A DNA stretch of 33,330 bases, taken from the sequence record NZ_CP054625.1; one strand, 5' to 3'. The notes under the pieces are model-generated. The model searched no databases. It saw only the letters and a program-made list of their open reading frames with translations, and was not told where the DNA came from. Shown here in pieces: positions 7,900-33,330 of this stretch. The position numbers were made by a program, and so were the translations under genes. Source of the stretch: a plasmid. Position 1 is the first letter of the stretch. Each line of letters opens with the position of its first letter.

Positions 7900-7907
7900 A
7901 CACCGCG

Positions 7908-11389: not shown

Positions 11390-11410
11390 TGTGCACTTGG
11401 CGAGCCGCAA

Positions 11411-11465: not shown

Positions 11466-11475
11466 GATTAGCGCC

Positions 11476-12198
11476 ATGGAAAATACCAGCCACAAGATTC
11501 TCGTCGTGGACGACGACCCCCGTCTCCGCGATCTGCTGCGCCGCTATCTCGGCGAGCAAGGCTTTACCGTGCTGGTCGCGGAAAACGCCACCGCCATGAA
11601 CAAGCTCTGGCTGCGCGAGCGTTTCGACCTGCTCGTGCTCGATCTGATGATGCCCGGCGAGGACGGCCTGTCGATCTGCCGTCGTCTGCGCGGCGCCAAC
11701 GACCAGACGCCGATCATCATGCTGACGGCCAAGGGCGAGGACGTGGACCGCATCGTCGGCCTGGAAATGGGCGCCGACGACTATCTGCCCAAGCCGTTCA
11801 ACCCGCGCGAACTGATCGCGCGCATCCATGCGGTGCTGCGCCGCAAGGGCCCGGCCGAAGTGCCCGGCGCCCCGTCGGAAACGCCGGAGACCTTCGCCTT
11901 CGGCGACTTCGTGCTGAACCTGGCCACGCGCACGCTGACCAAGAACGACGAGGAAATCACGCTGACCACCGGCGAGTTCTCGGTGCTCAAGGTGTTCGCC
12001 CGCCATCCGCGCCAGCCGCTGTCGCGCGAGAAGCTGATGGAAATGGCGCGCGGCCGCGAATACGAAGTGTTCGACCGCAGCCTGGACGTGCAGATCTCGC
12101 GCCTGCGCAAGCTGATCGAACCCGATCCCGGCAATCCACGCTTCATCCAGACCGTCTGGGGGCTGGGCTACGTCTTCATTCCCGATGGCGTGAAATAA
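11476..12198 (+). CDS. ompR: Osmolarity response regulator OmpR
   Basis: Near-colinear with E. coli OmpR: KILVVDDD.RLR.LL.RYL.EQGF... MLPGEDGLSICRRLR ... TVWGLGYVF.PDG. Confidence 0.95.
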   Translation: MENTSHKILVVDDDPRLRDLLRRYLGEQGFTVLVAENATAMNKLWLRERFDLLVLDLMMPGEDGLSICRRLRGANDQTPIIMLTAKGEDVDRIVGLEMGADDYLPKPFNPRELIARIHAVLRRKGPAEVPGAPSETPETFAFGDFVLNLATRTLTKNDEEITLTTGEFSVLKVFARHPRQPLSREKLMEMARGREYEVFDRSLDVQISRLRKLIEPDPGNPRFIQTVWGLGYVFIPDGVK

Positions 12199-12213
12199 GT
12201 CCCGGCCGTTATC

Positions 12214-13563: not shown

Positions 13564-13899
13564 TGCAGCGCCGCCGATCGCCACGCTGGCGTCACGCCAA
13601 TGGTGTATGGTGGCGCGATGCTCCAGTTCGACCGTCGTTCCCGCGCAAGCCGGGACCCGCGGCTCGACCGGCGCATGAAGACGCTGGGTCCCCGCGTTCG
13701 CGAGGACGACAGCATCGACGCAGCAGCCAGTCCCGCCCCTATCGGACTCTTTGAGATTTTCAATTAGCCGTGCCGAGCAGGATGCTGCATACTTCCCATT
13801 CGTTGCGTGGCGTGCGCAACGGCCCGAGAAAATCGTCTTCGACGATGGCCGTCTGTCATGCCCCGCTGGCGTCTGTTCAACCGTATCCAGGAGAAGTCC

Positions 13900-14448
13900 A
13901 TGAAGACCGTTGGTGACAAGCTCGAACCGTTCCACGTCGTCGGTGTCAAGCCGGGTTTCAACGCCCACGAAGAAAACGGCCAGTCGGCCTTTGAAGACAT
14001 CACCGAGAAGTCGTTCGAAGGCAAGTGGAAAATCATCTACTTCTACCCGAAGGACTTCACCTTCGTGTGCCCGACCGAGATCGTGGCCTTCGCCAAGCTG
14101 AACCAGGACTTCGCCGACCGCGACGCCGTGGTGCTGGGCGGCTCGACCGACAACGAGTTCGTCAAGCTGGCATGGCGCCGTGAACACAAGGACCTGAACA
14201 AGCTGAACTCGTGGCAGTTCGCCGATACCACCGGCTCGCTGATCGACCAGCTGGGCGTGCGCGAGAAGGATGCCGGCGTTGCGCTGCGCGCCACCTTCAT
14301 CGTCGACCCGGACAACACGATCCAGCACGTGTCGGTGAACAACCTGAACGTCGGCCGTAACCCGGACGAAATCCTGCGCATTCTGGACGGCCTGCAGACC
14401 GACGAGCTGTGCCCGTGCAACCGCGCTGTCGGCGGCGCGACGCTGTAA
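13900..14448 (+). CDS. ahpC: Peroxiredoxin AhpC (AhpC/TSA family, mycobacterial type, paired with AhpD)
   Basis: The peroxidatic motif FTFVCPTEI and a C-terminal ...LCPCNR with two extra Cys (as in the M. tuberculosis AhpC C174/C176 arrangement). ahpD follows. Confidence 0.93.
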   Translation: MKTVGDKLEPFHVVGVKPGFNAHEENGQSAFEDITEKSFEGKWKIIYFYPKDFTFVCPTEIVAFAKLNQDFADRDAVVLGGSTDNEFVKLAWRREHKDLNKLNSWQFADTTGSLIDQLGVREKDAGVALRATFIVDPDNTIQHVSVNNLNVGRNPDEILRILDGLQTDELCPCNRAVGGATL

Positions 14449-14464
14449 TTCGCGCGATGTCGAT

Positions 14465-14490
14465 GTTGCCGGCGGTTCGCCGCCGGCAAC
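14465..14490 (+). other. Perfect GC hairpin (11-bp stem, TTCG loop) directly after the ahpC stop, with no U-tract
   Basis: gttgccggcgg ttcg ccgccggcaac. Confidence 0.5.
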
Positions 14491-14510
14491 CGCGCCCCAG
14501 TGCGCACCGA

Positions 14511-14534
14511 AACCCGCTCACGCGGGTTTTTTCC
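14511..14534 (+). terminator. Rho-independent terminator-like hairpin with a T6 tract between ahpC and ahpD
   Basis: aacccgc tcac gcgggtt followed by tttttt (T-run 14527-14532). Confidence 0.65.
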
Positions 14535-14557
14535 GCCCAAAGCGATAGGAGAATTTG

Positions 14558-15079
14558 ATGGAATTCCTCAACACGATCAAGAATCTCATCCCCGACTATG
14601 CGAAGGACATTCGCCTGAACCTGGACGGCACCATCGCACGCTCCTCGCTGGAGGGTAACGATGCGGTGGGCGTGGCATTGGCTGCGGCCTTCGCCGCCAA
14701 GAGCAAGATCATCGTCGACGCGATCCGCAACGCCGGCGTGCTGTCGCCCGAAGAGCTGAACGGCGCGCTGACCGCGGCCGCGCTGATGGGCATGAACAAT
14801 GTCTGGTACCCGTATGTCGAGATGGCCGCCGATCCCGATCTGGCGAGCCAGCCCGCGGGCCTGCGCATGAACGCGTATGCCACTCACGGCGGCGTCGACA
14901 AGCGCCGCTTCGAGATGTACGCGCTGGCCGCGTCGATCGTCGGCAAGTGCCACTTCTGCGTCCGCTCGCACTACGAGCTGCTGAAGAACGAACAGGGCAT
15001 GACCTCGCAGCAACTGCGCGATGTCGGCCGCATCGCCGCCGTGATCACCGCCGCGGCCAACGTGATCGCAGCCGAGTAA
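14558..15079 (+). CDS. ahpD: Alkylhydroperoxidase AhpD (carboxymuconolactone decarboxylase family)
   Basis: The CxxC-H motif CHFCVRSHY is present. The ATG at 14558 is preceded by AGGAGA; the ORF track starts at an upstream TTG. Confidence 0.9.
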   Translation: MEFLNTIKNLIPDYAKDIRLNLDGTIARSSLEGNDAVGVALAAAFAAKSKIIVDAIRNAGVLSPEELNGALTAAALMGMNNVWYPYVEMAADPDLASQPAGLRMNAYATHGGVDKRRFEMYALAASIVGKCHFCVRSHYELLKNEQGMTSQQLRDVGRIAAVITAAANVIAAE

Positions 15080-15133
15080 GGCTGCATCGCCTGTCCTGAC
15101 CGGATCCCGCCCACGCGGGCATCCCGCATCGCC

Positions 15134-15165
15134 GATGGCCGCCTTGGGCGGCCATCGTCATTTCC
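15134..15165 (+). terminator. Putative terminator after ahpD: 10-bp perfect stem, TTG loop, then a T-rich tail
   Basis: gatggccgcc ttg ggcggccatc gtcatttcc. Confidence 0.5.
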
Positions 15166-15260
15166 GGCGCGCCGGCGGCGCCGCGCGTCCGCATTTCTCC
15201 GACTGCATTTGTGCACGGTCCGGCCTACAATCGAGGCAGATTCTGCTTCGCGGACCCTCC

Positions 15261-15836
15261 ATGAGCCAACTGCCCTCGCCCTCCTCGCCGCATTTCCACT
15301 ATCGTCTCGCCACCGCTTCGGACTGGGGCCAGATCGCCGCGGTCACGCAGGAAGCGTATGCGCAGTACGAGCTCGAGATCATGGAGGACTGCCGCGCGTC
15401 CTTCCAGCAGGGCATGCGTTCGGTGCTCGCGACCAATACGTCCGACATGGAATGGTGGGTCGCCGACACCGATCACGGCATCAGCGGCGCGGTGCTGTTC
15501 TGCCACCCGGGCGCGACGCTGCAGGCGCTGGACGGCAGCACGGTGACGCTGGCCCTGCCCGAGGCGCGGCTGCTGTCGGTCAGCCCGCAGGCGCGCGGCC
15601 TGGGGCTCGGACGGACGCTGATGCAGATCTGCATCGAGCGGGCGCGCGATATCGGCGCGCAGGCGCTGGTGGTGCGCACCATGCCGGAAATGGGTGCCGC
15701 CAACCGGCTGTGCCAGCAGATGGGCTTCGTCAAGCGGACCGAGGCGGGCGCGCGCTCGGGGCCGCTGGAACGGCTGGTCGACTACGTCTACGCGATCGAG
15801 CCGAAGGAAGCCGACGCGCCGCAGCCGGGCCTGTAG
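15261..15836 (+). CDS. GNAT-family N-acetyltransferase
   Basis: The core LSVSPQARGLGLGRTLMQICIERARDIGAQALVV matches the acetyl-CoA-binding motif A pattern (Q/RxxGxG/A). Confidence 0.75.
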   Translation: MSQLPSPSSPHFHYRLATASDWGQIAAVTQEAYAQYELEIMEDCRASFQQGMRSVLATNTSDMEWWVADTDHGISGAVLFCHPGATLQALDGSTVTLALPEARLLSVSPQARGLGLGRTLMQICIERARDIGAQALVVRTMPEMGAANRLCQQMGFVKRTEAGARSGPLERLVDYVYAIEPKEADAPQPGL

Positions 15837-15887
15837 CGGCGCGCATCGCGCCGAAAGCGCGACGCCGCGCGCTCGACGCGCAAGCGC

Positions 15888-16398
15888 TCAGTCCTGCGGC
15901 GCGACGATGGCGCCGCGCCACAGCAGCACCACCGCCTGCGCGACGATGCCCTCCTGGCGCCCTTCGAAGCCCAGCTTCTCGTTGGTCTTGGCCTTGACGT
16001 TGCAGCGGCCGGCCGCGATGCCCAGATCCTCGGCCAGATTGGCCACCATCGCGCCGATATGCGGCGCCAGCTTCGGCGCTTGCGCGATCACCGTCGCATC
16101 GACATTGCCCACTTCATAGCCGGCCTCGCGCACACGCCGTACCGCCTCGCGCAGCAGCGCGCGGCTGTCGGCGCCGGCAAAGGCGGGATCGGTGTCGGGG
16201 AAATGCCGGCCGATATCGCCGAGCGCCGCGGCCCCGAACAAGGCGTCGGTGATCGCATGCAGCAAGGCATCGGCATCGGAATGGCCGAGCAGGCCGCGGT
16301 CGTGGGGAATCTCCACGCCGCCGAGCACCAGCTTGCGGCCCGGCACCAGCGCGTGCACGTCGTAGCCTTGTCCCACGCGGATATCGAAGGGCATCATC
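15888..16398 (-). CDS. ispF: 2-C-methyl-D-erythritol 2,4-cyclodiphosphate synthase IspF
   Basis: [17 protein letters not shown]...[34 protein letters not shown]... is colinear with E. coli IspF. Confidence 0.95.
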
Positions 16399-17185
16399 GC
16401 GGTCGGTCTCCAGAAGAACCAGAAGAAGCGGCGGCGGGCTGGCCGCCGAGCAGGACTTCGGCCAGTGCGAAGTCCTCGGGATAGGTCACCTTGAAATTGC
16501 GCAGCGAGCCGTTGACCAGCCGCGGCTTCAGGCCGAGCCGCTCGATCGCGCTGGCCTCGTCGGTCACGACCGCGCCGCTGGCGAGCGCGTCCTCCAGCGC
16601 CTGACGCAGGACGCCGACGCGGAACATCTGCGGGGTCTGCGCCTGCCACAGCCCTTCGCGCGGCACGGTGCCGCCGATGCGGGACGGCTGCGAGGGATGC
16701 AGCGGTTCCGCATCGGCACGCTTGAGCGTATCGGGTACCGGCACCGCCAGGATGCCGCCGATCGCCGCGTCGGGCCCATCGCCATCGTCCCCTTCGACCG
16801 CGCGGATCAGCGTATCGATCATCAGCGGCGTCAACCCGGGACGGGCGGCGTCGTGGACCAGCACCCAGTCCTGATCCTCGGCGCCGAGCTGGACCAGATG
16901 CCGCAAGCCGTTCAACACCGATTCATGGCGTGACGAGCCGCCGACGAAGGCCGTATCGAAGCGCAGCCCGGCGAAGGCCGCCGAGCCGAAGCGCGCCTCC
17001 AGCGGCAGATCGTCCGGCGCCAGCACCAGCGCGGTCGCGCTGATCGACTCGCAAGCCGAGAACGCGGCGAGCGCATACCAGATCATCGGATGGCCGGCCA
17101 GCTCGCGATACTGCTTGGGCAGGCCCGCGCCCGCGCGGCTGCCACTGCCGGCACAGGGAATCAGGGCAAAACGTCGTTCGGACAT
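16394..17185 (-). CDS. ispD: 2-C-methyl-D-erythritol 4-phosphate cytidylyltransferase IspD
   Basis: The N-terminus [13 protein letters not shown]...PKQY is the IspD nucleotide-binding pattern. Its stop overlaps the ispF start (ATGATG/TGA overlap). Confidence 0.9.
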
Positions 17186-17273
17186 GCGGCGGACAGGCGG
17201 ATAAGGGAATCGGCGGGCGGCAAGGCAGGCGGCGCCCGAATGTGGCGGCCGATGGCCGGGCGCTGCGCATTCT

Positions 17274-17279
17274 ATAATA
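17274..17279 (+). promoter_or_regulatory. Candidate -10 element TATAAT upstream of mfd
   Basis: It is the only canonical TATAAT in the 160-bp ispD-mfd divergent gap, about 68 nt before the mfd ATG. Confidence 0.3.
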
Positions 17280-17346
17280 CGACCCTCTTCTCGACACCCC
17301 CGCCCGCGTTGCCGGCGGGGCGTCGTCGTTTGATCCGAACCGCTTT

Positions 17347-20832
<3,486 letters not shown>

Positions 20833-20834
20833 CG

Positions 20835-20877
20835 ATGTGCCGGGGGACACGGCGCGGCAAAGTGGACCCCGGCACAT
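20835..20877. repeat. 11-bp inverted repeat (ATGTGCCGGGG ... CCCCGGCACAT) directly after the mfd stop
   Basis: Seen directly. The long loop (21 nt) and absence of a T-tract suggest a REP or weak terminator. Confidence 0.4.
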
Positions 20878-20920
20878 GTCCAGGTGTAGGATCGGACATC
20901 CAACAGCGTGATCCTGCCGC

Positions 20921-22135
20921 ATGCCAGCCCATACCCCTGCTCCCACCGACGCCTTCACGGACATTCCCGAACACGCCGCCCTCGACTGGACCCGCCGGCT
21001 GATCGAGTTCGACACCACCAGCCGCGAATCCAATCTGGGCCTGATCGAGACGGTGCGCGACCACTTCGCCGCCCGCGGCCTGAAGCCCCACCTGAGCTAC
21101 AACCCGCAGCGCAACAAGGCCAATCTGCATGTGACCGTGCCCGCGGCCGACGGCAGCGAGCAGCGCGGCATCGTGCTGTCCGGGCATACCGACGTGGTGC
21201 CGGTCGACGGCCAGGACTGGAGCACCGATCCGTTCCGGCCGGCGCTGCGCGACGGCAAACTGTATGGCCGCGGCGCCTGCGACATGAAGGGCTTCATCGG
21301 CACCAGCCTCGCGCTGCTGCCCACGCTGCTGCAGGCGCGGCTGCGCGAACCGGTGCACTACGCGCTGTCGTTCGACGAAGAAGTCGGCTGCATGGGCGCC
21401 CCCTATCTGATCGACGACCTGCGCGAGCGCGGCATCCAGCCCGCGGGCTGCATCGTCGGCGAGCCGACCAGCATGCGCGTGATCGTCGCCCACAAGGGCA
21501 TCAACGCCTATCGCTGCTGCGTCAAGGGTCAGGCCGCGCATTCGTCGCTGACCCCGCGCGGCGTCAATGCGATCGAATACGCGGCGCGGCTGATCTGCTT
21601 CATCCGCGACCTCGCCGACGAGTTCCGCGCCAAGGGGCCCTACGACGATGCGTTCGACGTGCCCTTCACCACCGCATCGACCGGCACGATCCAGGGCGGC
21701 ATCGCGCTGAACACGATTCCCGCGCTGTGCGAGTTCGTGTTCGAGTACCGCAACCTGCCGGGCGTCGATCCGGAGGCGATCCGCGCGCGCATCGAGGCCT
21801 ATGCCAACGACGTGCTGCTGCCGCGCATGCGCGCCGAGCATGCCGACGCGGACCTGAGCATCACGCGCATCGCCGCGGCGCCGGCGCTCGACGCCGCCGA
21901 GCGCGATGCGATCACGCAGCTGGTGCGCGCGCTGACCGGTGACAACGCGATCAGCAAGGTCGCCTACGCCACCGAGGGCGGGCTGTTCCAGCGCGCCGGC
22001 ATCCCGGCCGTGGTCTGCGGCCCCGGCGACATCCAGCAGGCCCACAAGGCCGACGAGTTCGTCGCGCTGGAGCAGCTCGCGCAATGCGAGGCCTTCCTGC
22101 ACAAGGTTGTCGACAGCCTGCGCCTCGCGGCCTGA
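20921..22135 (+). CDS. argE: Acetylornithine deacetylase (ArgE-like) M20 metallopeptidase
   Basis: LSGHTDVVPVDGQDWSTDPF...DGKLYGRGACDMKG is the ArgE/DapE signature. Confidence 0.75.
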   Translation: MPAHTPAPTDAFTDIPEHAALDWTRRLIEFDTTSRESNLGLIETVRDHFAARGLKPHLSYNPQRNKANLHVTVPAADGSEQRGIVLSGHTDVVPVDGQDWSTDPFRPALRDGKLYGRGACDMKGFIGTSLALLPTLLQARLREPVHYALSFDEEVGCMGAPYLIDDLRERGIQPAGCIVGEPTSMRVIVAHKGINAYRCCVKGQAAHSSLTPRGVNAIEYAARLICFIRDLADEFRAKGPYDDAFDVPFTTASTGTIQGGIALNTIPALCEFVFEYRNLPGVDPEAIRARIEAYANDVLLPRMRAEHADADLSITRIAAAPALDAAERDAITQLVRALTGDNAISKVAYATEGGLFQRAGIPAVVCGPGDIQQAHKADEFVALEQLAQCEAFLHKVVDSLRLAA

Positions 22136-22319
22136 CGGTTCCCGTCGGGACACCACGACAGCCACGACACCCAACCCCGCGGGCGCGGCGCGCCTGCTCA
22201 CCGATGGCCTGAACGGCCGGGCCGCGCATGGTCCGGCCGGAATCTCAAGGGGCACGCAGAGGCCCCGTTGCAGAACCTATCGCAACACCAACCACAACGA
22301 CACCAAAGGAGAACTCCAC

Positions 22320-23753
22320 ATGGCAGCACGCCGCTCCCCCGCTTTCGCTCCCAGCCAACGATTCCTGACGCTGCCGGCCGCCTTGTCCGCGCTGGCGGCG
22401 GCCGCCGGCCTGCTGTGCGGCTCCGCGCTGCTTTCGCCGGCGCTGGCACAGACCGCCACGCCTGCCGCGGCGCAGAGCCTGGCAAGCAGCGGCGACCCTG
22501 CCCTGCACGCGCAGATCGAGACGCGCGCCAAGGCGGCCGAGGCCCGGCTGATCGCCTGGCGGCGCGACATCCACCAGCATCCGGAGCTCGGCAACTACGA
22601 GACGCGCACCGCGAAGCTGGTCGCCGACCACCTGCGCAAGCTCGGCATGGACGTCAAGACCGGCGTCGCCAAGACCGGCGTGGTGGGCCTGCTCAAGGGC
22701 GGCAAGCCCGGGCCGGTGGTGGCGCTGCGCGCCGACATGGACGCGCTGCCGGTCAAGGAGCGCGTCGACGTGCCGTTCGCCTCGAAGGCCAAGGGCAAGT
22801 ACCTCGGCAAGGAGGTCGACGTGATGCATGCCTGCGGCCACGACACCCACGTCGCGATCCTGATGGCGACCGCCGAGGTGCTGGCCGGGATGAAGGACCA
22901 GCTGCCCGGCACCGTCAAGTTCATCTTCCAGCCGGCCGAGGAAAGCCCGGCGGACATCGAGCCGGACGGCACCAATATCTGGGGCGCGAAGCAGATGGTG
23001 GCCGAGGGCGTGCTGGAGAACCCGAAGGTCGATGCGATCTTCGGCCTGCATGTCAGCAGCGGCATCGAGTCGGGCAAGCTGGCCTGGCGCAGCGGGCCGG
23101 CGATGGCCGCCGCCGACCAGTTCTGGATCGACGTCAAGGGCCGCCAGACCCATGGCGCGCGCCCGTGGGGCGGCATCGACCCGATCGTGGTGTCGTCGCA
23201 GATCGTGCTCGGTCTGCAGACGATCCAGAGCCGGCAGGTCAATGCAATGCTGGAGCCGTCGGTGATCACCGTCGGCACGATCCACGGCGGCAACCGCATG
23301 AACATCGTGCCGGAGAAGGTCGAGATGATGGGCACCATCCGCACCTATGACGAGGGCATGAAGAAGGACATCCATGCGCGGATGAAGCGCACCACCGAGT
23401 CGATCGCGGCCAGTTCCGGCGCCGAGGCGACCTTCCGCGTGGTCGAGCTCTACAACGCGACCGTCAACCAGCCCGCGCTGACCGAGAAGATGGCGCCGAC
23501 GCTCAAGCGCGTGGCCGGCGACGGCAACTGGATGCTGGCGCCCAAGGCCACCGCGTCGGAGGACTTCTCGTTCTACCAGGAGAAGGTGCCGGGCCTGTTC
23601 TTCAATCTCGGCGTGACGCCGAAGGGCACCGATGTCACCAAGGCGCCGTCGAACCACTCGCCGGAGTTCTACGTCGATGAGCCGGCGCTGATCCATGGCG
23701 TGCGGGCGCTGTCGAACCTGACGGTCGACTACATGACGATGGCCCAGCGCTAA
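22320..23753 (+). CDS. Secreted M20D-family amidohydrolase (hippurate hydrolase or aminoacylase type)
   Basis: An ATG preceded by AAAGGAGA, then the signal peptide MAARRSPAF...LLSPALAQ. The M20D metal-binding motifs MHACGHDTH and FQPAEE are present. Confidence 0.8.
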   Translation: MAARRSPAFAPSQRFLTLPAALSALAAAAGLLCGSALLSPALAQTATPAAAQSLASSGDPALHAQIETRAKAAEARLIAWRRDIHQHPELGNYETRTAKLVADHLRKLGMDVKTGVAKTGVVGLLKGGKPGPVVALRADMDALPVKERVDVPFASKAKGKYLGKEVDVMHACGHDTHVAILMATAEVLAGMKDQLPGTVKFIFQPAEESPADIEPDGTNIWGAKQMVAEGVLENPKVDAIFGLHVSSGIESGKLAWRSGPAMAAADQFWIDVKGRQTHGARPWGGIDPIVVSSQIVLGLQTIQSRQVNAMLEPSVITVGTIHGGNRMNIVPEKVEMMGTIRTYDEGMKKDIHARMKRTTESIAASSGAEATFRVVELYNATVNQPALTEKMAPTLKRVAGDGNWMLAPKATASEDFSFYQEKVPGLFFNLGVTPKGTDVTKAPSNHSPEFYVDEPALIHGVRALSNLTVDYMTMAQR

Positions 23754-23859
23754 GGGGCCGGGCGGGCCGGGCGCAGGGGCAGGCGCGGGACGATTACAAT
23801 AGCGTCCTTTCACCGCCGCCCCTGCCCCGTACGGGGCGGCGCATGCATCCGACCCGTCC

Positions 23860-24714
23860 ATGCCCCTGATTGTCCAAAGCCTCCAACCCATCGCCTCCCA
23901 GGATATCGACACGCTGCGCGCGCTTGCCGACGCGCCCGGCCTGAGCCTGCGCGCCGACACCGTCGCCACGGCCGAGGCCTGCGCGCCGCTCGACGACCGG
24001 CTGCGCGATGCGCTGGAGACGTTCTGCGAGCCGCGCCGGCTCGACTGGGCGGTGCTGCCGACGCACCGGACCCTGTCCGACTTCCGGCTGGTCGCGATGG
24101 ACATGGATTCGACGCTGATCACGATCGAGTGCATCGACGAGATCGCCGATTTCTGCGGCCTGAAGGCCGAGGTCTCGGCGATCACCGAGGCGGCGATGCG
24201 CGGCGAGATCACCGACTTCAACGAAAGCCTGCGGCGCCGCGTCGCGCTGCTCAAGGGGCTCGATGCCAGCGTGCTGGACCGCGTCTACGAGGAACGGCTG
24301 CGGCTGTCGCCGGGCGCCGAGCGGATGCTCGAGGCCGCGCGCGCCGCGGGCCTGCGTACGCTGCTGGTATCGGGCGGCTTCGTGCACTTCACCGAGAAGC
24401 TGAAGGCCCGGCTGGGCCTCGATTACGCCCGCGCCAATACGCTCGAGATCGTCGACGGCAAGCTGACCGGCCGCGTCGAGGGCGAGATCGTCAATGCCGA
24501 GGTCAAGGCCCGCACCGTGCGCGAGACCTGCGAAGCGATCGGCGCCGATCCGCGCCAGGCGATCGTGATGGGCGACGGCTCGAACGACCTGAAGATGATG
24601 GCGATCGCCGGCCTGTCGGTCGCGTTCCGCGCCAAGCCGGTGGTACGCGCGCAGGCCAGCGTGGCGTTCAACCATGTCGGGCTCGATGGGTTGTTGAATC
24701 TGTTCGCGGCTTGA
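23860..24714 (+). CDS. serB: Phosphoserine phosphatase SerB
   Basis: The HAD motif I VAMDMDSTLI plus GDGSNDL motif III, after an N-terminal ACT-like regulatory region. Confidence 0.9.
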   Translation: MPLIVQSLQPIASQDIDTLRALADAPGLSLRADTVATAEACAPLDDRLRDALETFCEPRRLDWAVLPTHRTLSDFRLVAMDMDSTLITIECIDEIADFCGLKAEVSAITEAAMRGEITDFNESLRRRVALLKGLDASVLDRVYEERLRLSPGAERMLEAARAAGLRTLLVSGGFVHFTEKLKARLGLDYARANTLEIVDGKLTGRVEGEIVNAEVKARTVRETCEAIGADPRQAIVMGDGSNDLKMMAIAGLSVAFRAKPVVRAQASVAFNHVGLDGLLNLFAA

Positions 24715-24792
24715 CCTCAGTCGACCTCAGTCGACCTCAGTCGACCTCTGTCGGCCTTTGTCGACCTCTGTCGGCGGACCTCTCTGCCGACC
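24713..24792. repeat. 10-bp tandem repeat (GACCTCAGTC-like), 7-8 copies, overlapping the serB stop codon
   Basis: gacctcagtc x3, then gacctctgtc, ggcctttgtc, gacctctgtc, ggcggacctc, tctgccgacc. Confidence 0.8.
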
Positions 24793-24833
24793 AGGCTCCG
24801 TAGTCTCCTGCCGCCGCATTGCCCTGTCCCCAA

Positions 24834-24949
24834 CCCTCTCCCGCAAGCGGGAGAGGGAGAACGCCGCCGGTGTCGGCGACCCCATCCCCGCTCCGTAACG
24901 CTTCCCGCCTCCGCCACCCGGCCCCCTCTCCCGCTTGCGGCAGAGGGGC
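24834..24949. repeat. Pair of REP-like GC palindromes (CCCTCTCCCGC-nn-GCGGGAGAGGG at 24834-24857, and a near-copy at 24921-24949)
   Basis: The first is a perfect 11-bp stem with a 2-nt loop. The second, cccctctcccgc ttg cggcagagggg, has one mismatch. They are 64 bp apart. Confidence 0.5.
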
Positions 24950-24974
24950 TTGAGCAGTGGCAAGCCGCACCCGT

Positions 24975-25074
24975 CACCGCGTCTTCCAATACATTGCAAA
25001 CAATATCAATAACTTGCATCGTCAAATACGAATCATTACCATTTGTGTTTTGAATTCCGTAACAAAATATTGGC
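24975..25074 (+). promoter_or_regulatory. About 100-bp AT-rich island (unusual in this GC-rich DNA) with Fur-box-like motifs, placed as the promoter of the iron-uptake operon
   Basis: aatacattgcaaacaatatcaataacttgcatcgtcaaatacgaatcattaccatttgtgttttgaattccgtaacaaaatattgg. GAATCATTACC matches 9 of 11 positions of the Fur consensus half TAATCATTATC. A TonB-dependent receptor and PepSY gene downstream fit Fur control. Confidence 0.45.
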
Positions 25075-25351
25075 GATGCAACTCTTTGCCGCTCTTCTCG
25101 GCCTGGCGGGCGCTGCCTGCCTGTATCTGGCCGGTCCCAACCAGGTGCTGCTGCGCCGGCCGCCCCAACGCCGGATGATGGTGTGGCTCGGCATCGTGCT
25201 GACGTCGGCCGGCGCGGTCGGCTGGTCGGTCGAGCACAGCTGGCCCTCTTCGATCGCCGCGACGCTGGCCACGCTCGGCACCGGCCTGTCGCTGTGGCCC
25301 TTCCTTGGCTGTTATCTGCACAAGCGCCGCGGCGGCGAGGAGGCGGCATGA
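25075..25351 (+). CDS. Small three-TM inner-membrane protein of the PepSY/TonB iron-uptake operon (DUF3325-like, tentative)
   Basis: MQLFAALLGLAGAACLYLAGPNQVLL...; hydrophobic, 91 aa, first gene after the AT-rich promoter. Confidence 0.5.
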
Positions 25352-25632
25352 ACGGCGGCATCGGTACCAAATGGCTGGCCGGCACCCTGCTCGGCTTTCC
25401 GCTGTCGCTGGCGGTCTGCACGCTGGCGATCCTGTGGCTGCCGGGCGGCTGGCAGAGCGGCATCATCGGCGCGGTGACCGCCAGCCTGCCGCTGTGGGTC
25501 GCGATCATCAGCACCAGCCTGCTGTTTTCCAGCAGCCGCGCCGCCTGGCTCTGGCTTGGCGCGGCCAATCTGATCTGTTTCGGTGCGTTGTGGGGATGGC
25601 GGCTGATGGCCGTGCCCGGCGCGGCCGCGTAA
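25348..25632 (+). CDS. Small three-TM inner-membrane protein (hypothetical), start overlapping the previous stop as ATGA
   Basis: MNGGIGTKWLAGTLLGFPLSLAVCTLAILWL...; 94 aa and hydrophobic. Confidence 0.5.
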   Translation: MNGGIGTKWLAGTLLGFPLSLAVCTLAILWLPGGWQSGIIGAVTASLPLWVAIISTSLLFSSSRAAWLWLGAANLICFGALWGWRLMAVPGAAA

Positions 25633-25642
25633 GGAGTTGGCC

Positions 25643-27274
25643 ATGAAGGCTGCAACGCTGCGCGTTTATCAGACGCTGCATACCTGGGTCGGCCTGATGG
25701 CCGGCTGGGCCCTGTTCATCGCGTTCTTCGCCGGCGCGATCACGGTGTTCCACCACGAGCTGCACGAGTGGCAGTCGCCGGCGCGTATCCGCGGCGAAAC
25801 CCACACCGCCGCCAAGCCGTCGCCCGAGGACCTGGACCGCTTCGTCGCCACGCTGGTCAAGGCCCATCCCGAGGCCGCGGCCAGCGTCTATATCGGCCTG
25901 CCGACCGAAGGCGAGCCGCACACCACTGCCTACTGGATGGACGCCAAGGGCGAGTGGCAGACCACCAACGAGGAGAAGCTCGGCGCGGGCCGGACCTCGC
26001 CGCAGGACACCTCGCTCGACGGCGTGCGCGGCGAGCTGTCGAACTTCCTGAACGCCCTGCACTACACGCTGGGCCTGCCGATGCAGGCCGGCATGCATTT
26101 CATGGGCGTGGTGTCGGTGCTGTACGGGCTGGCGCTGGTTTCCGGCGTGCTGCTGCATCTGCCGCGGCTGAAGAAGGACCTGTTTGCCGTGCGCCCGGGC
26201 CGCAACCTGAAGCGCTTCTGGATGGACGCGCACAACGTGATCGGCCTGTTCAGCCTGCCCTTCCATCTGGTCATCGCGATCACCGGCGCGCTGTTCTGCG
26301 TGTCGATGACGCTGACGATGGCCTTCAACGTGCTGACCTTCGACGGCAAGCTGATGTCGGCCCTGCCTACCGCAATGTCGTCGGTGCCGGAGGTGCAGGC
26401 GGCCGGCAAGCCGGCGCCGCTGATGCCGGCGCGCGAACTGATCGAGATCGCGCAGCGCACCGCCGGCGACGGCTTCAAGCCGAATTCCGTCCGTTATCAG
26501 CGTGTGGGCGACGCCAATGCGCTGATCGAAGTGCGCGGCGACAGCGAGCGCGCGCTCGGCAATTTCGGCTCGGTCGGCATCCATGCCGCCGCCGGCCAGC
26601 CCGACAGCGGGCGCGTGATCGCCAATCAGACCGCCAGCGGGCGGGACGCCAACCATGGCCTGTACAGCGCGCTGTTCGCGCTGCATTTCGGCACCTACGG
26701 CGACCTGGCGCTGCGGCTGGTCTATCTGATCGCCGGGCTGGCGGGGGCCTTCCTGTTCTACTCGGGCAATCTGCTGTGGATCGAGTCGCGCCGCAAGGCA
26801 CGCCAGGCCGAGCAGCCGCGCGTGCACCGGCTGCTGGCGCAGGCCACGGTCGGCGTCTGCATCGGCTGCTGTGTCGGCGTGGCGGTGGCCTTCACCGGCG
26901 CGCTGCTGTGGCCCGAGCGTCCGTCGTCGTTTGTCTACTTCCCGGTGTTCTTCGCCGCGCTGGCCTGGGCGCTGCTGCGTCCGCCCGTGCGCGCCGCGAT
27001 CGAGCTGCTGTACGCGGCGGCGCTGGCCTATCTGGCGGTACCGGTGGCCAACGCGATCCTGACCGGCGACCATCTGCTGCGCAGCGTGCGGCAAGGCGAA
27101 TGGGCCGTCGCCGGCTTCGACATCGGCGCGCTGGTGTTCGCGGTCGGCTTCGTCGCGCTGGCACGCGCCACGCAGCGCCGTGCCCGCACCGGCCCCGCCG
27201 ACTCGGTATGGGCGCCGCGCCCGAGCCGCGGCGATCCGGGCCCGTCGGCGCCGCCGGTGGTCGACACGCCGTAA
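25643..27274 (+). CDS. PepSY-associated TM-helix protein (PiuB-like iron-regulated membrane protein)
   Basis: An N-terminal TM segment, periplasmic region and further TM helices arranged as in PepSY_TM proteins. AAGGAG lies 6 nt before the ATG at 25643. Confidence 0.8.
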   Translation: MKAATLRVYQTLHTWVGLMAGWALFIAFFAGAITVFHHELHEWQSPARIRGETHTAAKPSPEDLDRFVATLVKAHPEAAASVYIGLPTEGEPHTTAYWMDAKGEWQTTNEEKLGAGRTSPQDTSLDGVRGELSNFLNALHYTLGLPMQAGMHFMGVVSVLYGLALVSGVLLHLPRLKKDLFAVRPGRNLKRFWMDAHNVIGLFSLPFHLVIAITGALFCVSMTLTMAFNVLTFDGKLMSALPTAMSSVPEVQAAGKPAPLMPARELIEIAQRTAGDGFKPNSVRYQRVGDANALIEVRGDSERALGNFGSVGIHAAAGQPDSGRVIANQTASGRDANHGLYSALFALHFGTYGDLALRLVYLIAGLAGAFLFYSGNLLWIESRRKARQAEQPRVHRLLAQATVGVCIGCCVGVAVAFTGALLWPERPSSFVYFPVFFAALAWALLRPPVRAAIELLYAAALAYLAVPVANAILTGDHLLRSVRQGEWAVAGFDIGALVFAVGFVALARATQRRARTGPADSVWAPRPSRGDPGPSAPPVVDTP

Positions 27275-27484
27275 CACCGGCCGCACCGGGCCTCCCCGGT
27301 GCCCCCACCGCACCCACCGAGGCGCGGCAGGGCCGAGCGGCGCGGTTCCCGGCGCCGCGGCCCACAACACCACCCCCCACCCAATCTGCACAGCTCCCAG
27401 GCGCACGCGGTCCCCCGTGGCGTCCGGGGAGCCGTGCGCGTTCGCATAACGCATTCGCATCACGACCGAAGAGGAAATCGAGCC

Positions 27485-29698
27485 ATGTCCAACCCTCGCC
27501 GCGGCCGCCCCGCGCTGACACCGCTGGCGCGCCAGCTTGCCCTGATCGTCGCCGTCGGCGGCGCCGCCACGCCGGCGCTCGCGCAGAACGCCACGGGCAC
27601 CGCCGCCGTTCCACCTACCCCCGCTGCCACACCCACCGCCACCGCGCAGGCCGAACTGCCGACCGTCCACGTCACCGCCGGCAGCGAGCCCGCCTATCGC
27701 GCCCGCGACGCCAGCACCGGCGCCCTCGGCGACAAGCCGCTGCAGGACACGCCGTTCTCGGTGTCGGTGGTGCCGCAGGAGCTGATCGAGAACCGCCAGG
27801 CCATCACGCTGGGCGACGTGTTCCGCGGCGATCCGTCGGTCGCGCCGATCGGCGACGGCTATATCGGCGAGTCGGCGGGTTTGACGATCCGTGGCCTGCA
27901 TCTCGATCTGCTCGAGGGCTACAAGATCGACGGCCTCGCCATCCCGAACTGGGGCAGCGACGTGCCGCTCGAACACTTCGAACGCGTCGAGCTGCTCAAG
28001 GGCCTCGGCGGCTTCATGTACGGCTTCGGCGCACCGGGCGGCATCGCCAACTTCGTCACCAAGCGCCCCACCTCGAAATTCGCCGGCAGCGCGACGCTCG
28101 GCTATGTCTCGGACGGGGTGCTGCGCGAGTCGATCGACGTCGGCGGCCGCTTCGGCGCGAACGACATGTTCGGCGCGCGCGCCGGCTTCGTGCACGAGGA
28201 AGGCGACACCTTCGTCGACGGCGGCCATATCAAGCGCGATTCCGCCTCGGTGGCGCTCGACGCAAGGCTGAGCCCCAACCTGCGCTGGTCGCTCGACGGC
28301 CTCTACCAGCAGCGCAACGTCAAGGGCGCCTACTACGGCATCATCCCCGGCCAGGACTTCGGCGCGCCGGTGACCGAATTCGTCCACACGCCCCGCACGC
28401 TCGACGGCAGCCAGCGCGTGGCGAGCAAGGGCACCTATTACGAGACCGAGATCAAGAGCATCGGCACGGAGCTCAACTGGGGCTTCGCCGACGACTGGAA
28501 CCTGCGCACCTCGTACCGCTTCACGCAGCAGAACCGCGGCAACGCCGACAGCGCGATCCTGCTGCTGGACAACGCCGGCAACTACGCCGAGAACCAGTAC
28601 AGCTCGTACTCGCGCTACCACTATCAGCACGCCCAGACGATGGCGACCGGCAAGGTCCGCACCGGCAGCATCGAGCACGACATCGCCGCGGGCCTGTCGT
28701 GGCAGAGCCTGGTGCAGAACTGGGGCAGCTTCGCCGGCGGCGGCATCATCGGCTACGGCAATCTGTACGATCCCGGCCAGTTCGTGCCGACCGGCCTGCC
28801 GCTGTCGCGCGTGCCGTCGTCGGACGTGCTGTACCGCGCGTCGAAGATCGAGCAGAAGTCCGTCTTCTTCAGCGACACGATCAAGTTCAACGAGCAGTGG
28901 TCGGTACTGGCTGGCCTGCGCTACACGCGCTACGACCAGACCGGCTACACGCCGGAGGGCGCGATCTCGAGCACCTACAGGAAGTCGCCGCTGACGCCGA
29001 CCGTCGCGCTGATGTACAAGCCGGTGCAGCCGCTGACGCTGTACGGCAGCTATGTCGAATCGCTCGAAGCCGGAGGCTCCGCACCGCTGACCGCGCGCAA
29101 CGCGGGCGAGGTGTTCGGTCCGCTCAAGAGCCGCCAGTACGAGATCGGCGCCAAGGCCGAACTGGAGGACTGGACCATCAATGCGGCGCTGTTCCAGATC
29201 CAGCGCGGCCTGAACTACCTTCGCAACGACAACGTCTACACGCAGGATGGCGAGACCCGCTATCGCGGCATCGAACTGTCGGCCCGCGGCAAGCTCGCGC
29301 GCGACTGGACGCTGATGGGCGGCGTCACGCTGCTCGATTCGGAGAACGTCGAAGCTTCGCCAGACGTGCTGGGCAAGCGGGCCTACAGCGCGCCGACCTT
29401 CAAGGCCACCGCCTACATCGAGTACGCGGTACCGCCCGTGCCCGGCCTGGTGCTGACCGCCGGCGGCCAGTACGTGTCGAAGATGGCGCTGGAGGCGAAC
29501 AACAGCAACTGGGTGCCGGCGTACCACACCTTCGATGCGGGTATCCGCTATTCGACCAAGCTGGGCAAGACGCCGGCGGTGTTCCGGCTGGTGGTCGACA
29601 ACCTGACCAACGAGAAGTACTGGCTGCCAAGCTACGGCTTCATCCTGACCCAGGGTGCGCCGCGTACGGTGCGGGCCAGCGCGACGTTCAGCTTCTGA
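27485..29698 (+). CDS. TonB-dependent outer-membrane siderophore receptor
   Basis: Signal peptide; a TonB-box region (ELPTVHVTA); the plug domain (FSVSVVPQELIENRQAITLGDVFR...TIRG); a 22-strand barrel ending with the C-terminal aromatic ...RASATFSF. Confidence 0.9.
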   Translation: MSNPRRGRPALTPLARQLALIVAVGGAATPALAQNATGTAAVPPTPAATPTATAQAELPTVHVTAGSEPAYRARDASTGALGDKPLQDTPFSVSVVPQELIENRQAITLGDVFRGDPSVAPIGDGYIGESAGLTIRGLHLDLLEGYKIDGLAIPNWGSDVPLEHFERVELLKGLGGFMYGFGAPGGIANFVTKRPTSKFAGSATLGYVSDGVLRESIDVGGRFGANDMFGARAGFVHEEGDTFVDGGHIKRDSASVALDARLSPNLRWSLDGLYQQRNVKGAYYGIIPGQDFGAPVTEFVHTPRTLDGSQRVASKGTYYETEIKSIGTELNWGFADDWNLRTSYRFTQQNRGNADSAILLLDNAGNYAENQYSSYSRYHYQHAQTMATGKVRTGSIEHDIAAGLSWQSLVQNWGSFAGGGIIGYGNLYDPGQFVPTGLPLSRVPSSDVLYRASKIEQKSVFFSDTIKFNEQWSVLAGLRYTRYDQTGYTPEGAISSTYRKSPLTPTVALMYKPVQPLTLYGSYVESLEAGGSAPLTARNAGEVFGPLKSRQYEIGAKAELEDWTINAALFQIQRGLNYLRNDNVYTQDGETRYRGIELSARGKLARDWTLMGGVTLLDSENVEASPDVLGKRAYSAPTFKATAYIEYAVPPVPGLVLTAGGQYVSKMALEANNSNWVPAYHTFDAGIRYSTKLGKTPAVFRLVVDNLTNEKYWLPSYGFILTQGAPRTVRASATFSF

Positions 29699-29741
29699 CG
29701 TGGTGCCGTCGCGGCAGCAAGACGCAAGCAGAAACGAGGAA

Positions 29742-29770
29742 GGCGGACCGGTGGGTCCGCCGTGTTGTCG
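29742..29770. terminator. Bidirectional terminator-like hairpin between the convergent TonB-receptor and Rpn genes
   Basis: ggcggacc ggtg ggtccgcc followed by gtgttgtcg. Confidence 0.5.
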
Positions 29771-29794
29771 CGCTGGTCCTTGGCGAGGGTCGCG

Positions 29795-30729
29795 TCAGGC
29801 CCGGAAAACGTCCTCGATCACTTCCGCGCGCAGAAGCTGAATGCCCCAGCGCTCGAGTTCTTCAGAGGTTGCGATCTCGATCCGCTGCACAACGGACGTT
29901 TGCAGCGGGCCAAAGCGCTCGGCCAACTGCTTTTGCAGCATGCGGGCCTCGCCTTCTTGCCGAGCCTCCTCGCGGAGCTTGTGGGTGAAACGTTGTAGAT
30001 TGGCACCTACCACTTGCATGTCGACCTCCATCAATTGAAACACCTGATCGGGTGTCAGGACGCTGCCCCGTTGGCCGCACAGCAATGCCGCGAAGGTCTT
30101 GGCGAACGCCAGCTTGAGTTTCGGCTCATGCCGCAAGCGCGTCCTGCATTCGATCATCAGCGACACGACAGTATCGTAATCGGCTGCCCGCTCAATGCGA
30201 AACAGCAGCGCCGCTAGATTGTCATCGGGCAACTGCGCTTCGCTCAATCGGTTGATGTCCAGCAACGTATGTTGCTGGTGCAATTGACACGCTGCCAAGC
30301 CGTTGGGCAGCGACACAACGACATCGCGGATGTTCGTACATGCGCTCCATGGCGTATCGCCGTTATACAGGACGATCGACAGCGCCGCCGGCACCCTGCG
30401 ATCCGGCAACACCTGGCCCGCGCGAACAAGCTCCTGGTGCAGCAAAGCCGTATAGGCCGCCATGCGCGGCGCCATGTAGCGATCGATGGTGCTCTGGAAT
30501 TCGAGCAGCACGTACAGGTGGCCCCATGGATCGCCGGCATCGACACGCCACACCATGTCGCTGGCACGCTGCCGCATGTTGTCGGCGACGTAGTTGCCGG
30601 AAACCCGTTCCAGCGTCGAGTAGTCCAGCGCGCGAAGCCAGTCGCTGCGAATGAATTCGCGCAAGAGGTCGCGCATCATTTCCGGCATGGCGAACAACAG
30701 TTTGTAGCCGGCGTCGTAGTCCCTGGCCA
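29795..30729 (-). CDS. Rpn-family recombination-promoting nuclease / putative transposase (YhgA-like, PD-(D/E)XK)
   Basis: The ATG at 30729 gives MARDYDAGYKLLFAMPEMMRDLLREFI..., the canonical Rpn/YhgA N-terminus. The protein is 311 aa and carries the C-terminal DUF4351-like helix-rich tail. Confidence 0.85.
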
Positions 30730-30892
30730 TTGCTTCGTTCAGCGTTGTTGAGATGCCGCAAAGAATGCCTTTGCACGGGACCTCGTGCTGACGAAAAGAT
30801 GTGCCGTACTTTAGGTTGCAGACGGGATGGGGCGAGCCAGCTTCGCCACGGCGTGATCCGGCTTCCGGGCCCTGCAACGGAACGAGGCCCGC

Positions 30893-31831
30893 TCAACCGA
30901 CCAGATTCGCTTCCATCGCCGCCTTCAGATCGGCAATCAGGTCGCGCGTATCCTCCAGCCCGATATACAGCCGCACCAGTTCGCCAGCGTCCTGCCAGCC
31001 GGCGGGCGGCCAGCTGCCCGCCGGGCGCATCGTCGGCACGTGGTACGGCACGGCCAGGCTGTGCGCGCCGCCCCAGGACCAGCCGATCGAGAACAGTCGC
31101 AGCGCCTCGACGAAGGCATCGACCTGGGCGCGCGGATAGCGCGCGCGCAGCACTACCGCGAACAGGCCGCTCGCCCCGGAGAAATCGCGGCGCCAGAAAG
31201 CGTGGCCGGGACAGTCCGGCAGCGCCGGATGCAGGACCCGGGCAACCTCGGGCCGCTGCGCCAGCCACTCGGCGACCTCGCGGGCGGCGCGGTCGTGCGC
31301 GGCGAGCCGCACCGGCATGCTCGGCAGCGAGCGCAGCACCAGGTAGCAGTCGTCGGCCGACACGCCCCAGCCCATCAGCATGCGCACGCGCTTGATGCGC
31401 TGGTAGAGCTTGTCGTCGCGGCACAGCACCGCGCCCATCAGCACATCGCTGCCGCCGGACTGGTACTTCGTCAGCGCCTGCACGGACAGGTCGATGCCCT
31501 TGTCGAAGGGACGGAAATAGATGCCGGCCGACCAGGTGTTGTCGATCGCGGTCAGCACGCCGCGCGCCTTGGCGGCGGCGACGATGGCCTCGCTGTCCGG
31601 CACCTCCATCGTCACGGAGCCCGGGGCCTCCATCCAGATCAGCCGCGTATTGGGCCGGATCAGCTCGGCGATGCCGGCGCCGATCATCGGGTCGTAGGGT
31701 CGTACCGTGATGCCGAAATCGCGCGCCAGCCATTCGCCGTGCTCGCGATTGGGACCGTAGACGTTGTACGGCACCAGCACGTCGTCGCCGGCCTTCAGCA
31801 GCGCGAAATAGACCAGCGAGATCGCGCCGAG
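30893..31831 (-). CDS. metC: Cystathionine beta-lyase (MetC-like, Cys/Met-metabolism PLP enzyme), C-terminal about 310 aa only; the N-terminal roughly 95 aa are absent and it is fused in frame to an mnmC fragment
   Basis: Colinear with E. coli MetC from about residue 95 onward: ...[31 protein letters not shown]...[10 protein letters not shown] (PLP lysine)...[16 protein letters not shown]. Confidence 0.75.
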
Positions 31832-32155
31832 GCCGGCGTGCAGCTCGGCCAGCCCCTCGCGTGTGAACGGATGCTTCTCGATCGAGACGAAATGCAGGCG
31901 CGCGCAGCGGCGCGGATCGTCGCGCCAGGCCTGCCACGTCGCCAGGAAATTGAGCCCCTGGCCAAAGCCCGTCTCGACGATGACGAACTGCTCCCGGCCC
32001 TGCCACGCCTGCGGCAGGCCATTGCCGCCGAGAAACACGTGCCGCGCCTGCGCCAGTCCGCCCTCGACGCTGTGATAGACGTCGTCATAGCGCGGCGAGT
32101 ACGGCGTCCCCTGGTCGGACAGGATCGGCTCGGCGGGATCGAGGGCGCGGGGCAT
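31832..32155 (-). CDS. mnmC: MnmC N-terminal methyltransferase-domain fragment (first about 110 residues of tRNA mnm5s2U bifunctional MnmC), fused in frame to the metC segment
   Basis: [47 protein letters not shown]...[17 protein letters not shown]...[22 protein letters not shown] matches the E. coli MnmC N-terminus (EGTPVSRDFDDVYFS...ESGFGTGLNFLTLWQAF...[20 protein letters not shown]). Confidence 0.7.
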
Positions 32156-32301
32156 CGGGAGAACAAAAACGGGGCGGAGGACTGCGGGGAAAGGCGTCTC
32201 GCGGCACGGCAAAACCGCCGCAGCATGCTGCATGACGGCGCTGGGCGCCGCGGAAGGTCGGCCGGATGGTAGCATGGCGCCCTGCTCCGCCCGCCCCTGC
32301 C

Positions 32302-33159
32302 ATGCTCAGCTATCGCCACGCCTTTCACGCCGGCAATCACGCCGACGTTCTCAAGCACGCCATCGTCGCCCACCTGCTCGATTACCTGACGCAGAAGGAC
32401 AAGCCGTTCTGGTATATCGACACGCATGCCGGCGCCGGCCTCTATGCGCTGGACGAAGGCTACGCGACCAGGAAGTCGGAGTTCGAGACCGGCATCGCGC
32501 CGCTGTGGCGCGCCGCCGCGGACGGCCGTGCGCTGCCGCCGCTGCTGCAGCAATACCTGGACCAGGTGCGCACGCTCAATCCCGACGGCCGCCTGCGGCA
32601 CTATCCCGGCTCGCCGTGGCTGGCCTGGCAGACGCTGCGCGAGGCGGACCGGCTGCGGCTGTTCGAATTGCACAGCACCGAGATCCAGGTGCTGCGCGAG
32701 AACTTCCGCGGCGCGGGCCGTCGCGTGATGCTGTATGACGGTGATGGTTTCGGCGGCATCAAGGCCATCCTGCCGCCCCCGCCGCGCCGCGCGCTGGTGC
32801 TGATCGATCCGTCTTACGAGGACAAGCAGGACTACGCGCGCACCTTGCAATGCCTGCGCGACGGGCTGCAGCGCTTTGCCACGGGGACCTATGCGGTCTG
32901 GTATCCGCAGGTGCAGCGGCGCGAGTCCGTGCAATTGCCGGTCCAGATGAAGGCGCTGCCGTTCAAGAGCTGGCTGCACGCGACGCTGACCGTCAAGCAC
33001 CCGGTGCCCGGCGGACTCGGCCTGCACGGCAGCGGCATGTTCGTCGCCAATCCGCCGTGGACCTTGCGCGCCGCGCTGGAGGCGGCGCTGCCGGCGCTGG
33101 TCGAACTGCTCGGCCAGGACGCCGGCGCCGCCTTCACGCTGGAAGGCGAACAGCCCTGA
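32302..33159 (+). CDS. rlmJ: 23S rRNA m6A2030 methyltransferase RlmJ
   Basis: [22 protein letters not shown]...[10 protein letters not shown]...FVANPPW is the RlmJ signature, colinear with E. coli RlmJ. Confidence 0.85.
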
Positions 33160-33199
33160 GCGCGGGACAGCGCTGCGTGCCGGCGCTGCGCCCGCCCCG

Positions 33200-33330
33200 C
33201 TACATCATGCGGCGGGTGAACTGCCCTCGCTCGGCGCCGGCCATCAGATCCAGGAACGCTTCCGTCGTCATATGGATCAGTTCCTCGTGGTCGCCCGCCT
33301 CGAAATAGACCTCGGGCTGGCCGAGCAGGC
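33200..33330 (-). CDS. C-terminal 42 codons plus stop of a YbaK/ProX-like deacylase, entering from beyond the window end and reading in frame into the ORF at the window start
   Basis: Minus-strand translation from 33328 gives LLGQPEVYFEAGDHEELIHMTTEAFLDLMAGAERGQFTRRMM*, which matches the YbaK C-terminus (compare ...[27 protein letters not shown]). It is absent from the ORF track because it is edge-truncated. Confidence 0.6.
   Translation of the reverse strand, partial: LLGQPEVYFEAGDHEELIHMTTEAFLDLMAGAERGQFTRRMM

Follow-up and report, generated by a model that had tools for sequence, protein, structure and literature searches.

Gene content of the window

The window, by which we mean the whole stretch of 33,330 nucleotides analysed here, contains, in this order along the closed sequence, a partial mnmC, rlmJ, a YbaK-like gene, a tRNA-Leu gene, an RND pump, hpnCDE, risAS, ahpCD, ispDF, mfd, serB, a PepSY gene, a TonB-dependent receptor gene, an rpn-like gene and a partial metC. 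Pfam searches on the large ORFs recognized the RND pump and a membrane-fusion protein, hpnC-, hpnD- and hpnE-like products, M20 peptidases, the RisA/RisS two-component system (RisS with its RisS_PPD domain), AhpC and AhpD, a GNAT protein, IspF, IspD, Mfd, SerB, a PepSY_TM protein, the TonB-dependent receptor, a YhgA/Rpn-like protein, a Cys/Met PLP enzyme and RlmJ. The preliminary description of this DNA had judged such a content to be chromosomal rather than plasmid-like, and rightly so: these are core chromosome genes, and contigs of the same strain tile the window with 0 substitutions.

The gene rlmJ (23S rRNA methyltransferase, 285 aa; positions 32302-33159, plus strand; Pfam RsmJ, 1.3e-64) has its native place next to the YbaK-like gene, lies divergently to mnmC and is found in the same order in the contigs L095 to L099. 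The tRNA-Leu(TAG) gene (1044-1129, minus strand), likewise a chromosomal core gene, carries one single-base indel. The genes for the RND pump and the membrane-fusion protein (1457-9422) are arranged divergently beside those for the hpnC/hpnD-like squalene/phytoene synthases and the HpnE-like amine oxidase; in more distant loci of Cupriavidus (L003-L008) there is a single SQS_PSY gene and no oxidase. The Rpn/YhgA-like gene (Transposase_31; 29795-30730, minus strand) sits in a low-GC patch; the region 29795-30877 on this strand, with Transposase_31 and DUF4351 domains, has a GC content of 0.61 versus about 0.69, and the gene is disrupted in the chromosome CP066227.1.

No family of replication (Rep), partition (Par), mobilization (Mob), T4SS or integrase proteins was found by Pfam in the 29 ORFs scanned together with the YbaK-like product; for small ORFs that were called in relatives, no Pfam match is on record. 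The sequence thus appears to encode neither a replication initiator nor partition or mobilization functions of an autonomous plasmid, although an origin that needs no plasmid-encoded protein would be compatible with the sequence taken alone. Neither is it distinct from chromosomal DNA, with 0 substitutions relative to same-strain contigs and about 99% identity to 3.5-Mb chromosomes. The doubts previously raised about a true 33-kb replicon are therefore borne out by the lack of Rep, Par, Mob and integrase families.

The linearisation point and the gene that it cuts

A YbaK-like reading frame had been described as running on from the end of the window into its start. When the last and first bases are joined and translated, the minus-strand frame is indeed free of stops across the 33330/1 seam, where a Ser codon (AGC) is split in the way described, position 1 contributing one base and positions 33329-33330 the other two. 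The product around this residue is ...YIDD-S-LLGQPEVYFEAGDHE...RRMM*, its stop codon lying at 33200-33202; written out across the seam, the translation reads ...GAIPPVGMAYGMRTYIDD up to the junction and SLLGQPEVYFEAGDHEELIHM...RRMM* beyond it. The joined open stretch of 146 aa gave the single, near-full-length tRNA_edit match (PF04073) that had been expected of it, with E=5e-29 and 101.3 bits (cut-off 25.5), aligned over positions 7-122 of the 123 in the profile. By itself, the part before the junction reaches only position 94 of this profile and the 43-aa tail alone has no Pfam match; therefore, the two pieces meet at the same position of the domain.

The ends of the window are also direct neighbours in six independent contigs of Cupriavidus gilardii. 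In that of the type strain CCUG 38401 (L009), positions 1 and 33330 correspond to the consecutive bases 10310 and 10311 (window 1-10330 aligning with L009 10310-1, and 31825-33330 with 11816-10311), and a scan of species-representative genomes matched the joined protein contiguously in this strain over residues 1-146 at 99%. The same adjacency is present without gaps, at 100% identity, in four Logan contigs that come from different runs (L095, L097, L098 and L099); window positions 33330 and 1 are bases 15689 and 15688 of L095. A TARA scaffold (L096) contains this adjacency at 99.2%. No terminal overlap longer than 10 nt exists between the window ends. The window is a circular sequence record whose ends are native neighbours, as the proposed circular continuity implied. 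The 33330/1 point itself, as these alignments show, is native sequence of the chromosome and no more than the site at which a circular contig was opened, which makes it biologically uninformative.

The gene cut at this point occupies positions 344-1 followed by 33330-33200. Its 5' part (1-344, minus strand) starts with the ATG at 342-344 and its 3' part (33200-33330, minus strand) comprises about codons 115-157 plus the stop codon. An extra G at 305/306 shifts the frame of the first 13 codons in the window; the intact gene, at L095 15346-15819, encodes a protein of 157 aa, somewhat shorter than the 165 or so residues anticipated, which begins MALATTLATCLSSKNSHFD... The assignment to YbaK stood only at the level of the domain: the 157-aa protein scores 41.4 bits with the YbaK_EbsC equivalog model TIGR00011, whose cut-off is 153.25, and the gene is accordingly a member of the tRNA_edit superfamily and not a YbaK orthologue. 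The closest solved chains are 3op6_A (E=3.6e-16), which is uncharacterised, and 2cx5_A (E=1.3e-11), the putative trans-editing enzyme TTHA1699 of Thermus thermophilus. Like the free-standing trans-editing proteins of the YbaK/ProX/INS type (PF04073), it is a single-domain protein with a full-length tRNA_edit match, but it differs from the Cys-tRNA(Pro) deacylase YbaK of E. coli, as its sub-threshold TIGR00011 score indicates. Except for containing the cut point, this gene is unrelated to circularity.

Single-base indels next to the linearisation point

Between positions 306 and 1492 the window departs from same-strain contigs by 11 single-base indels (9 missing and 2 extra bases) and by no substitution, ten of the 11 altering the length of a run of G or C. 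These are its only differences from those contigs, the remaining ~32 kb, including both flanks of the joint described below, being error-free. Four genes are hit: besides the frameshift in the YbaK-like gene, a 106-aa Gly/Tyr-rich ORF is garbled, the tRNA-Leu gene lacks one C and the RND pump is shortened at its C-terminus to 1002 aa versus 1035 aa. Pseudogenes that seem to be present near the window start were rejected as such, given that they result from these consensus indels relative to the same-strain contigs. Errors of this pattern are typical of a long-read consensus with thin coverage at a contig end, here beside the linearisation point, and not of mutation. The error-free consensus on both sides of the joint, in turn, suggests that many reads lie behind it.

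Chromosomal origin of the segment

Three contigs of the same strain, one of them a 275-kb chromosomal contig among the tiling set, account for the whole circle. L095 covers window positions 31825-33330 and 1-15681 with 0 substitutions, L090 covers 13860-24856 at 100%, and L107 (GCA_025399655.1) covers 17485-31836 at 100%. Together they tile it colinearly without a single substitution, so that the joint at 31825-31836 is the sole rearrangement. The 3.54-Mb chromosome CP066227.1, found through an exact-protein look-up of RisA, is colinear with window positions 1469-22180 at 99.1%, the differences being mostly substitutions spread along the sequence. An artificial mutation of the window, considered on account of this 99.1% identity, was discarded, since the pattern is that of natural divergence and other contigs are 100% identical. 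Gene order is kept in chromosome 1 of CP066227.1, CP080293.1 and CP098736.1 and in C. cauae; the segment was present, colinear and unrearranged in every strain examined as well as in C. cauae. The native order in L095 to L099 is membrane-fusion protein, RND pump, 106-aa ORF, (tRNA-Leu), 157-aa tRNA_edit gene, rlmJ, mnmC, tig and clpP. On the basis of the same-strain tiling, positions 1-33330 represent one contiguous ~33.3-kb segment of C. gilardii chromosome 1, extending from the interior of mnmC to the interior of metC and closed head-to-tail, with a unit length of 33,330 bp as deposited and of about 33,337 bp once the 11 indels are repaired.

Some further observations were made on these contigs. 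Sequence 100% identical to the window, its 11 indels apart, is carried by at least 10 different SRA runs (L090-L102, L104, L108-L112); this occurrence in many runs, along with the TARA Oceans scaffold at 99.2%, suggests that the C. gilardii clone is widespread, as a contaminant of environmental or reagent origin. At about 24830-24856 there is a break in many independent Logan assemblies, and the neighbouring stretch 24875-24981 is hypervariable between strains (L108); two conserved small ORFs of 91 and 94 aa, neither with a Pfam match, have this break and hypervariable region (24830-24981) directly on their upstream side. Compared with window positions 22180-22851, CP066227.1 has ~11.9 kb of extra DNA within the second M20 peptidase gene (L001/L103, 1871406-1883928).

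A novel joint at positions 31825-31836

Given that the ends of the window are native neighbours, its non-native adjacency must be internal. Base-by-base comparison placed it 1.5 kb from the 33330/1 seam, at positions 31825-31836, where the window equals its metC-side parent (L107) through 31836 and its mnmC-side parent (L095) from 31825 onwards. The 12 nt common to both chromosomal breakpoints, CGCCGAGGCCGG, occur once in the window. On the window's end side the match of the type strain breaks off at 31825; from the other side, L089, L107, L109, L111 and L112 follow the window to about 31836 and then continue into the rest of a 413-418-aa Cys/Met PLP gene which is missing from the window. Both breakpoints have the same orientation, mnmC and metC being encoded on the minus strand, and they are 33.3 kb apart. 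Microhomology of at least 12 nt arose with a frequency of ~1e-5 when joins were simulated at random 2,000,000 times on the same native sequence. The preliminary description had favoured a rotated copy of a linear segment over a true 33-kb replicon; this part of it has to be replaced by a circle closed at a specific novel joint whose 12-nt microhomology would be met at random in about 1 of 100,000 cases. A joint of this kind would mean that a head-to-tail junction existed in the sequenced molecules.

Within 4 kb on either side of each breakpoint no longer repeat was detected, the best other match being 26 nt at 88% (E=0.2), and homologous recombination between longer repeats near the breakpoints was discarded for this reason. 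The 12-mer was also considered as the core of a site-specific att site and rejected, as there is no integrase, the breakpoints fall within conserved ORFs and the segment is found in every strain examined.

The joint was then sought in sequence collections. A 38-mer spanning it has 0 exact matches in IMG/VR and in JGI metagenome contigs, and megablast with the joint region retrieved from PLSDB only an unrelated 81.6% match (rlmJ on a Ralstonia megaplasmid) and nothing from the phage collection. Other sequences that overlap the window at 100% identity, such as L107 and the Logan contigs, carry the native, unrearranged borders.

The chimeric mnmC'-'metC ORF

The joint fuses codon ~108 of mnmC in frame to codon ~88 of metC, the gene for cystathionine beta-lyase, thus creating a 420-aa ORF (30893-32155, minus strand) made up of MnmC residues 1 to ~108 and of MetC from about profile position 88 to its C-terminus. 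NCBIfam models assign ORF residues 7-111 to positions 2-106 of 645 of MnmC (PRK01747) and residues 107-417 to positions 88-392 of 394 of MetC (PRK07050); the native proteins of relatives have 679 aa (MnmC) and 418 aa (MetC). Depending on the start, the chimera (30893-32275, minus strand) would span 420-460 aa, with the N-terminal ~108 aa of MnmC preceding the C-terminal ~310 aa of MetC, and it lies behind the native mnmC promoter region. With neither of two alternative starts did the chimeric protein find an exact match in a collection of 15 billion proteins, nor did RlmJ when read from its upstream ATG; the source record is apparently missing from that collection. Since both the 38-mer and the chimeric protein are absent from the collections, the rearrangement is without an independent sighting. 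An in-frame fusion is expected by chance in 1 of 3 cases, and that of mnmC to metC is probably of no functional significance.

Origin of the circular sequence

The explanation that we favour, and hold to be reasonably probable, is that the window represents the unit of a microhomology-mediated tandem duplication, or the circle looped out of one, which a long-read assembler emitted as a circular contig. The joint would have been formed in vivo, by RecA-independent, microhomology-mediated illegitimate recombination or by template switching between sister chromosomes, and such an exchange between sisters would have yielded a direct tandem duplication, or an amplification, of the segment. If long reads did not span the 33-kb repeat, the output of the assembler would be one unit plus the joint, i.e. 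a self-overlapping contig, which, once trimmed and taken to be circular, may have entered the databases as a 'small replicon', probably that of 33,330 bp in strain FDAARGOS_639; the indel cluster at 306-1492 would then mark the thinly covered start of that contig. A duplicated chromosome would retain intact mnmC and metC at the outer borders, carry ~30 genes at double dose and gain a single chimeric mnmC'-'metC ORF. With its outer copies of mnmC and metC intact, the tandem duplication is the only biologically harmless version of the rearrangement. What was found at the locus is a novel head-to-tail joint in direct orientation, with short exact homology (12 nt, within the class of ~5-25 bp) and without long flanking direct repeats. 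Tandem-duplication junctions with 5-25 bp of microhomology that are not produced by homologous recombination have been described (bioRxiv 10.64898/2026.05.22.727201), and microhomology junctions are known in amplifications (PMC11721125).

The main competitor of a tandem duplication would be a joint without any counterpart in vivo, either a chimeric molecule of the library or a spurious leftover contig of the PacBio type closing on itself. Small redundant contigs are, in general experience, common in long-read assemblies, this one has evident quality problems (the 11 indels at 306-1492, mostly in homopolymers) and its joint was seen nowhere else, be it in IMG/VR, the JGI metagenomes or the protein collection. 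Ligation chimeras, on the other hand, are expected to lack microhomology and to combine random partner loci in random orientation, whereas the two loci joined in the window lie at a distance of 33 kb in a genome of 5.7 Mb, are directly oriented and share 12 exact nt (P ~1e-5); an assembler would need an overlap much longer than 12 nt to make the join on its own, and the error-free consensus on either side argues for the support of multiple reads. We regard such an artefact as unlikely, yet it ranks next to the favoured explanation. Rather doubtful, and a step further down, is a free, non-replicating extrachromosomal circle, either looped out of an existing tandem duplication through homologous recombination of its copies or cut out directly at the microhomology. 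In topology the record corresponds exactly to a circle with one copy of the 12-mer, and duplications are normally lost by looping out, amplifications being unstable (PMC11721125). A molecule devoid of replication functions would be diluted, though, and would be too rare to be assembled at high quality; its direct excision would in addition remove ispD/ispF, mfd, serB and a tRNA-Leu gene and truncate both mnmC and metC. The genes of the MEP pathway are essential in Betaproteobacteria, so direct excision would very likely be lethal.

The remaining explanations are much less probable. A computational rotation of an arbitrary linear slice of 33,330 bp would account for the chromosomal content, and circular permutation would likewise make the ends continuous, but an arbitrary slice would have no 12-nt identity at its seam (P ~1e-5). 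In favour of a mobile genomic island, excised at att sites of 12 bp, one could cite the Rpn/YhgA-like 'transposase_31' gene located 1.1 kb from the joint; against it, no integrase is encoded, the borders lie inside the conserved coding sequences of mnmC and metC, and the segment occupies its colinear, unrearranged place in all the strains examined and in C. cauae, so that the features of an integrative element are missing. Taken together, rotation and island are highly improbable. The least credible of all is that the window is a true plasmid or small replicon of 33 kb with autonomous replication, for which a circular record cited as a 'small replicon' (PMC12029693) speaks. This reading conflicts with the lack of Rep, Par, Mob and T4SS families in the 29 ORFs scanned, with the base-for-base match to chromosome 1 DNA of same-strain contigs, with borders that cut two housekeeping ORFs and with its absence from PLSDB, the sole match in this plasmid collection being the 81.6% one to rlmJ on the Ralstonia megaplasmid.

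A bolder extension of the tandem-duplication reading is that the reference strain itself carries the 33-kb unit in amplified form, as an array or a persisting circle, generated by RecA-independent joining at the microhomology, possibly promoted by Rpn, and kept for gene dosage. This is a long shot in our estimation. Rpn proteins of E. coli promote RecA-independent recombination (PMC5350276), and a role of the Rpn/YhgA-like gene in forming the joint is speculative. If the amplification were true, the dose of the RND efflux pump, hpnCDE (hopanoid synthesis), RisAS, AhpCD and the TonB-dependent receptor would be doubled, and an adaptive amplification would be hidden as a 'plasmid' in a reference genome.

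Identity and significance of the record

A "small replicon" of 33,330 bp was cited in 2025 for C. gilardii FDAARGOS_639 (PMC12029693). The length of the window equals exactly that of the unit, i.e. the repeat period, which is implausible for a slice of fixed size; the window is therefore the whole circular record, and from species and exact length it is very likely that of FDAARGOS_639. The window is absent from both PLSDB and the phage collection. The literature apparently counts this record as a small replicon belonging to the C. gilardii reference genome at NCBI (PMC12029693), but it has none of the properties of a plasmid. It duplicates about 30 core chromosomal genes, adds an artificial-looking mnmC'-'metC fusion ORF and four genes affected by indels, and thus inflates counts of plasmids, pangenome paralogues and pseudogenes. 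If the joint is real in vivo, it would provide a clean, base-resolved 33-kb microhomology-mediated duplication in an emerging multidrug-resistant opportunist, one that takes in an efflux pump and envelope-stress genes. Knowledge of the mechanism is left unchanged by either the curation point or the example of a duplication; the main outcome is a curation correction together with one probable new example of a well-known class of rearrangement.

Comparison with known rearrangements and assembly products

Two known classes resemble the window. With the redundant 'circular' long-read contigs that are deposited as plasmids it shares a small size, identity to the chromosome, the lack of replication genes and homopolymer-indel errors at one contig end beside the linearisation point. 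Typical spurious contigs are, by contrast, linear and rich in errors throughout, whereas the window is free of errors over ~32 kb and closes precisely at a microhomology, and this speaks for a junction really present in the DNA. The second class comprises the junctions of bacterial microhomology-mediated, RecA-independent duplications and amplifications. The window differs from known duplications in that it is known as a stand-alone circular record only, and not as a chromosomal array. As in that class, its joint connects sites in direct orientation that lie tens of kb apart, uses a microhomology, here of 12 nt, with no IS, rrn or longer repeats at the borders, and yields a chimeric ORF, with the outer copies of the genes expected to remain intact. 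In every feature that can be examined at the sequence level, the rearrangement agrees with the junctions of microhomology-mediated tandem duplications.
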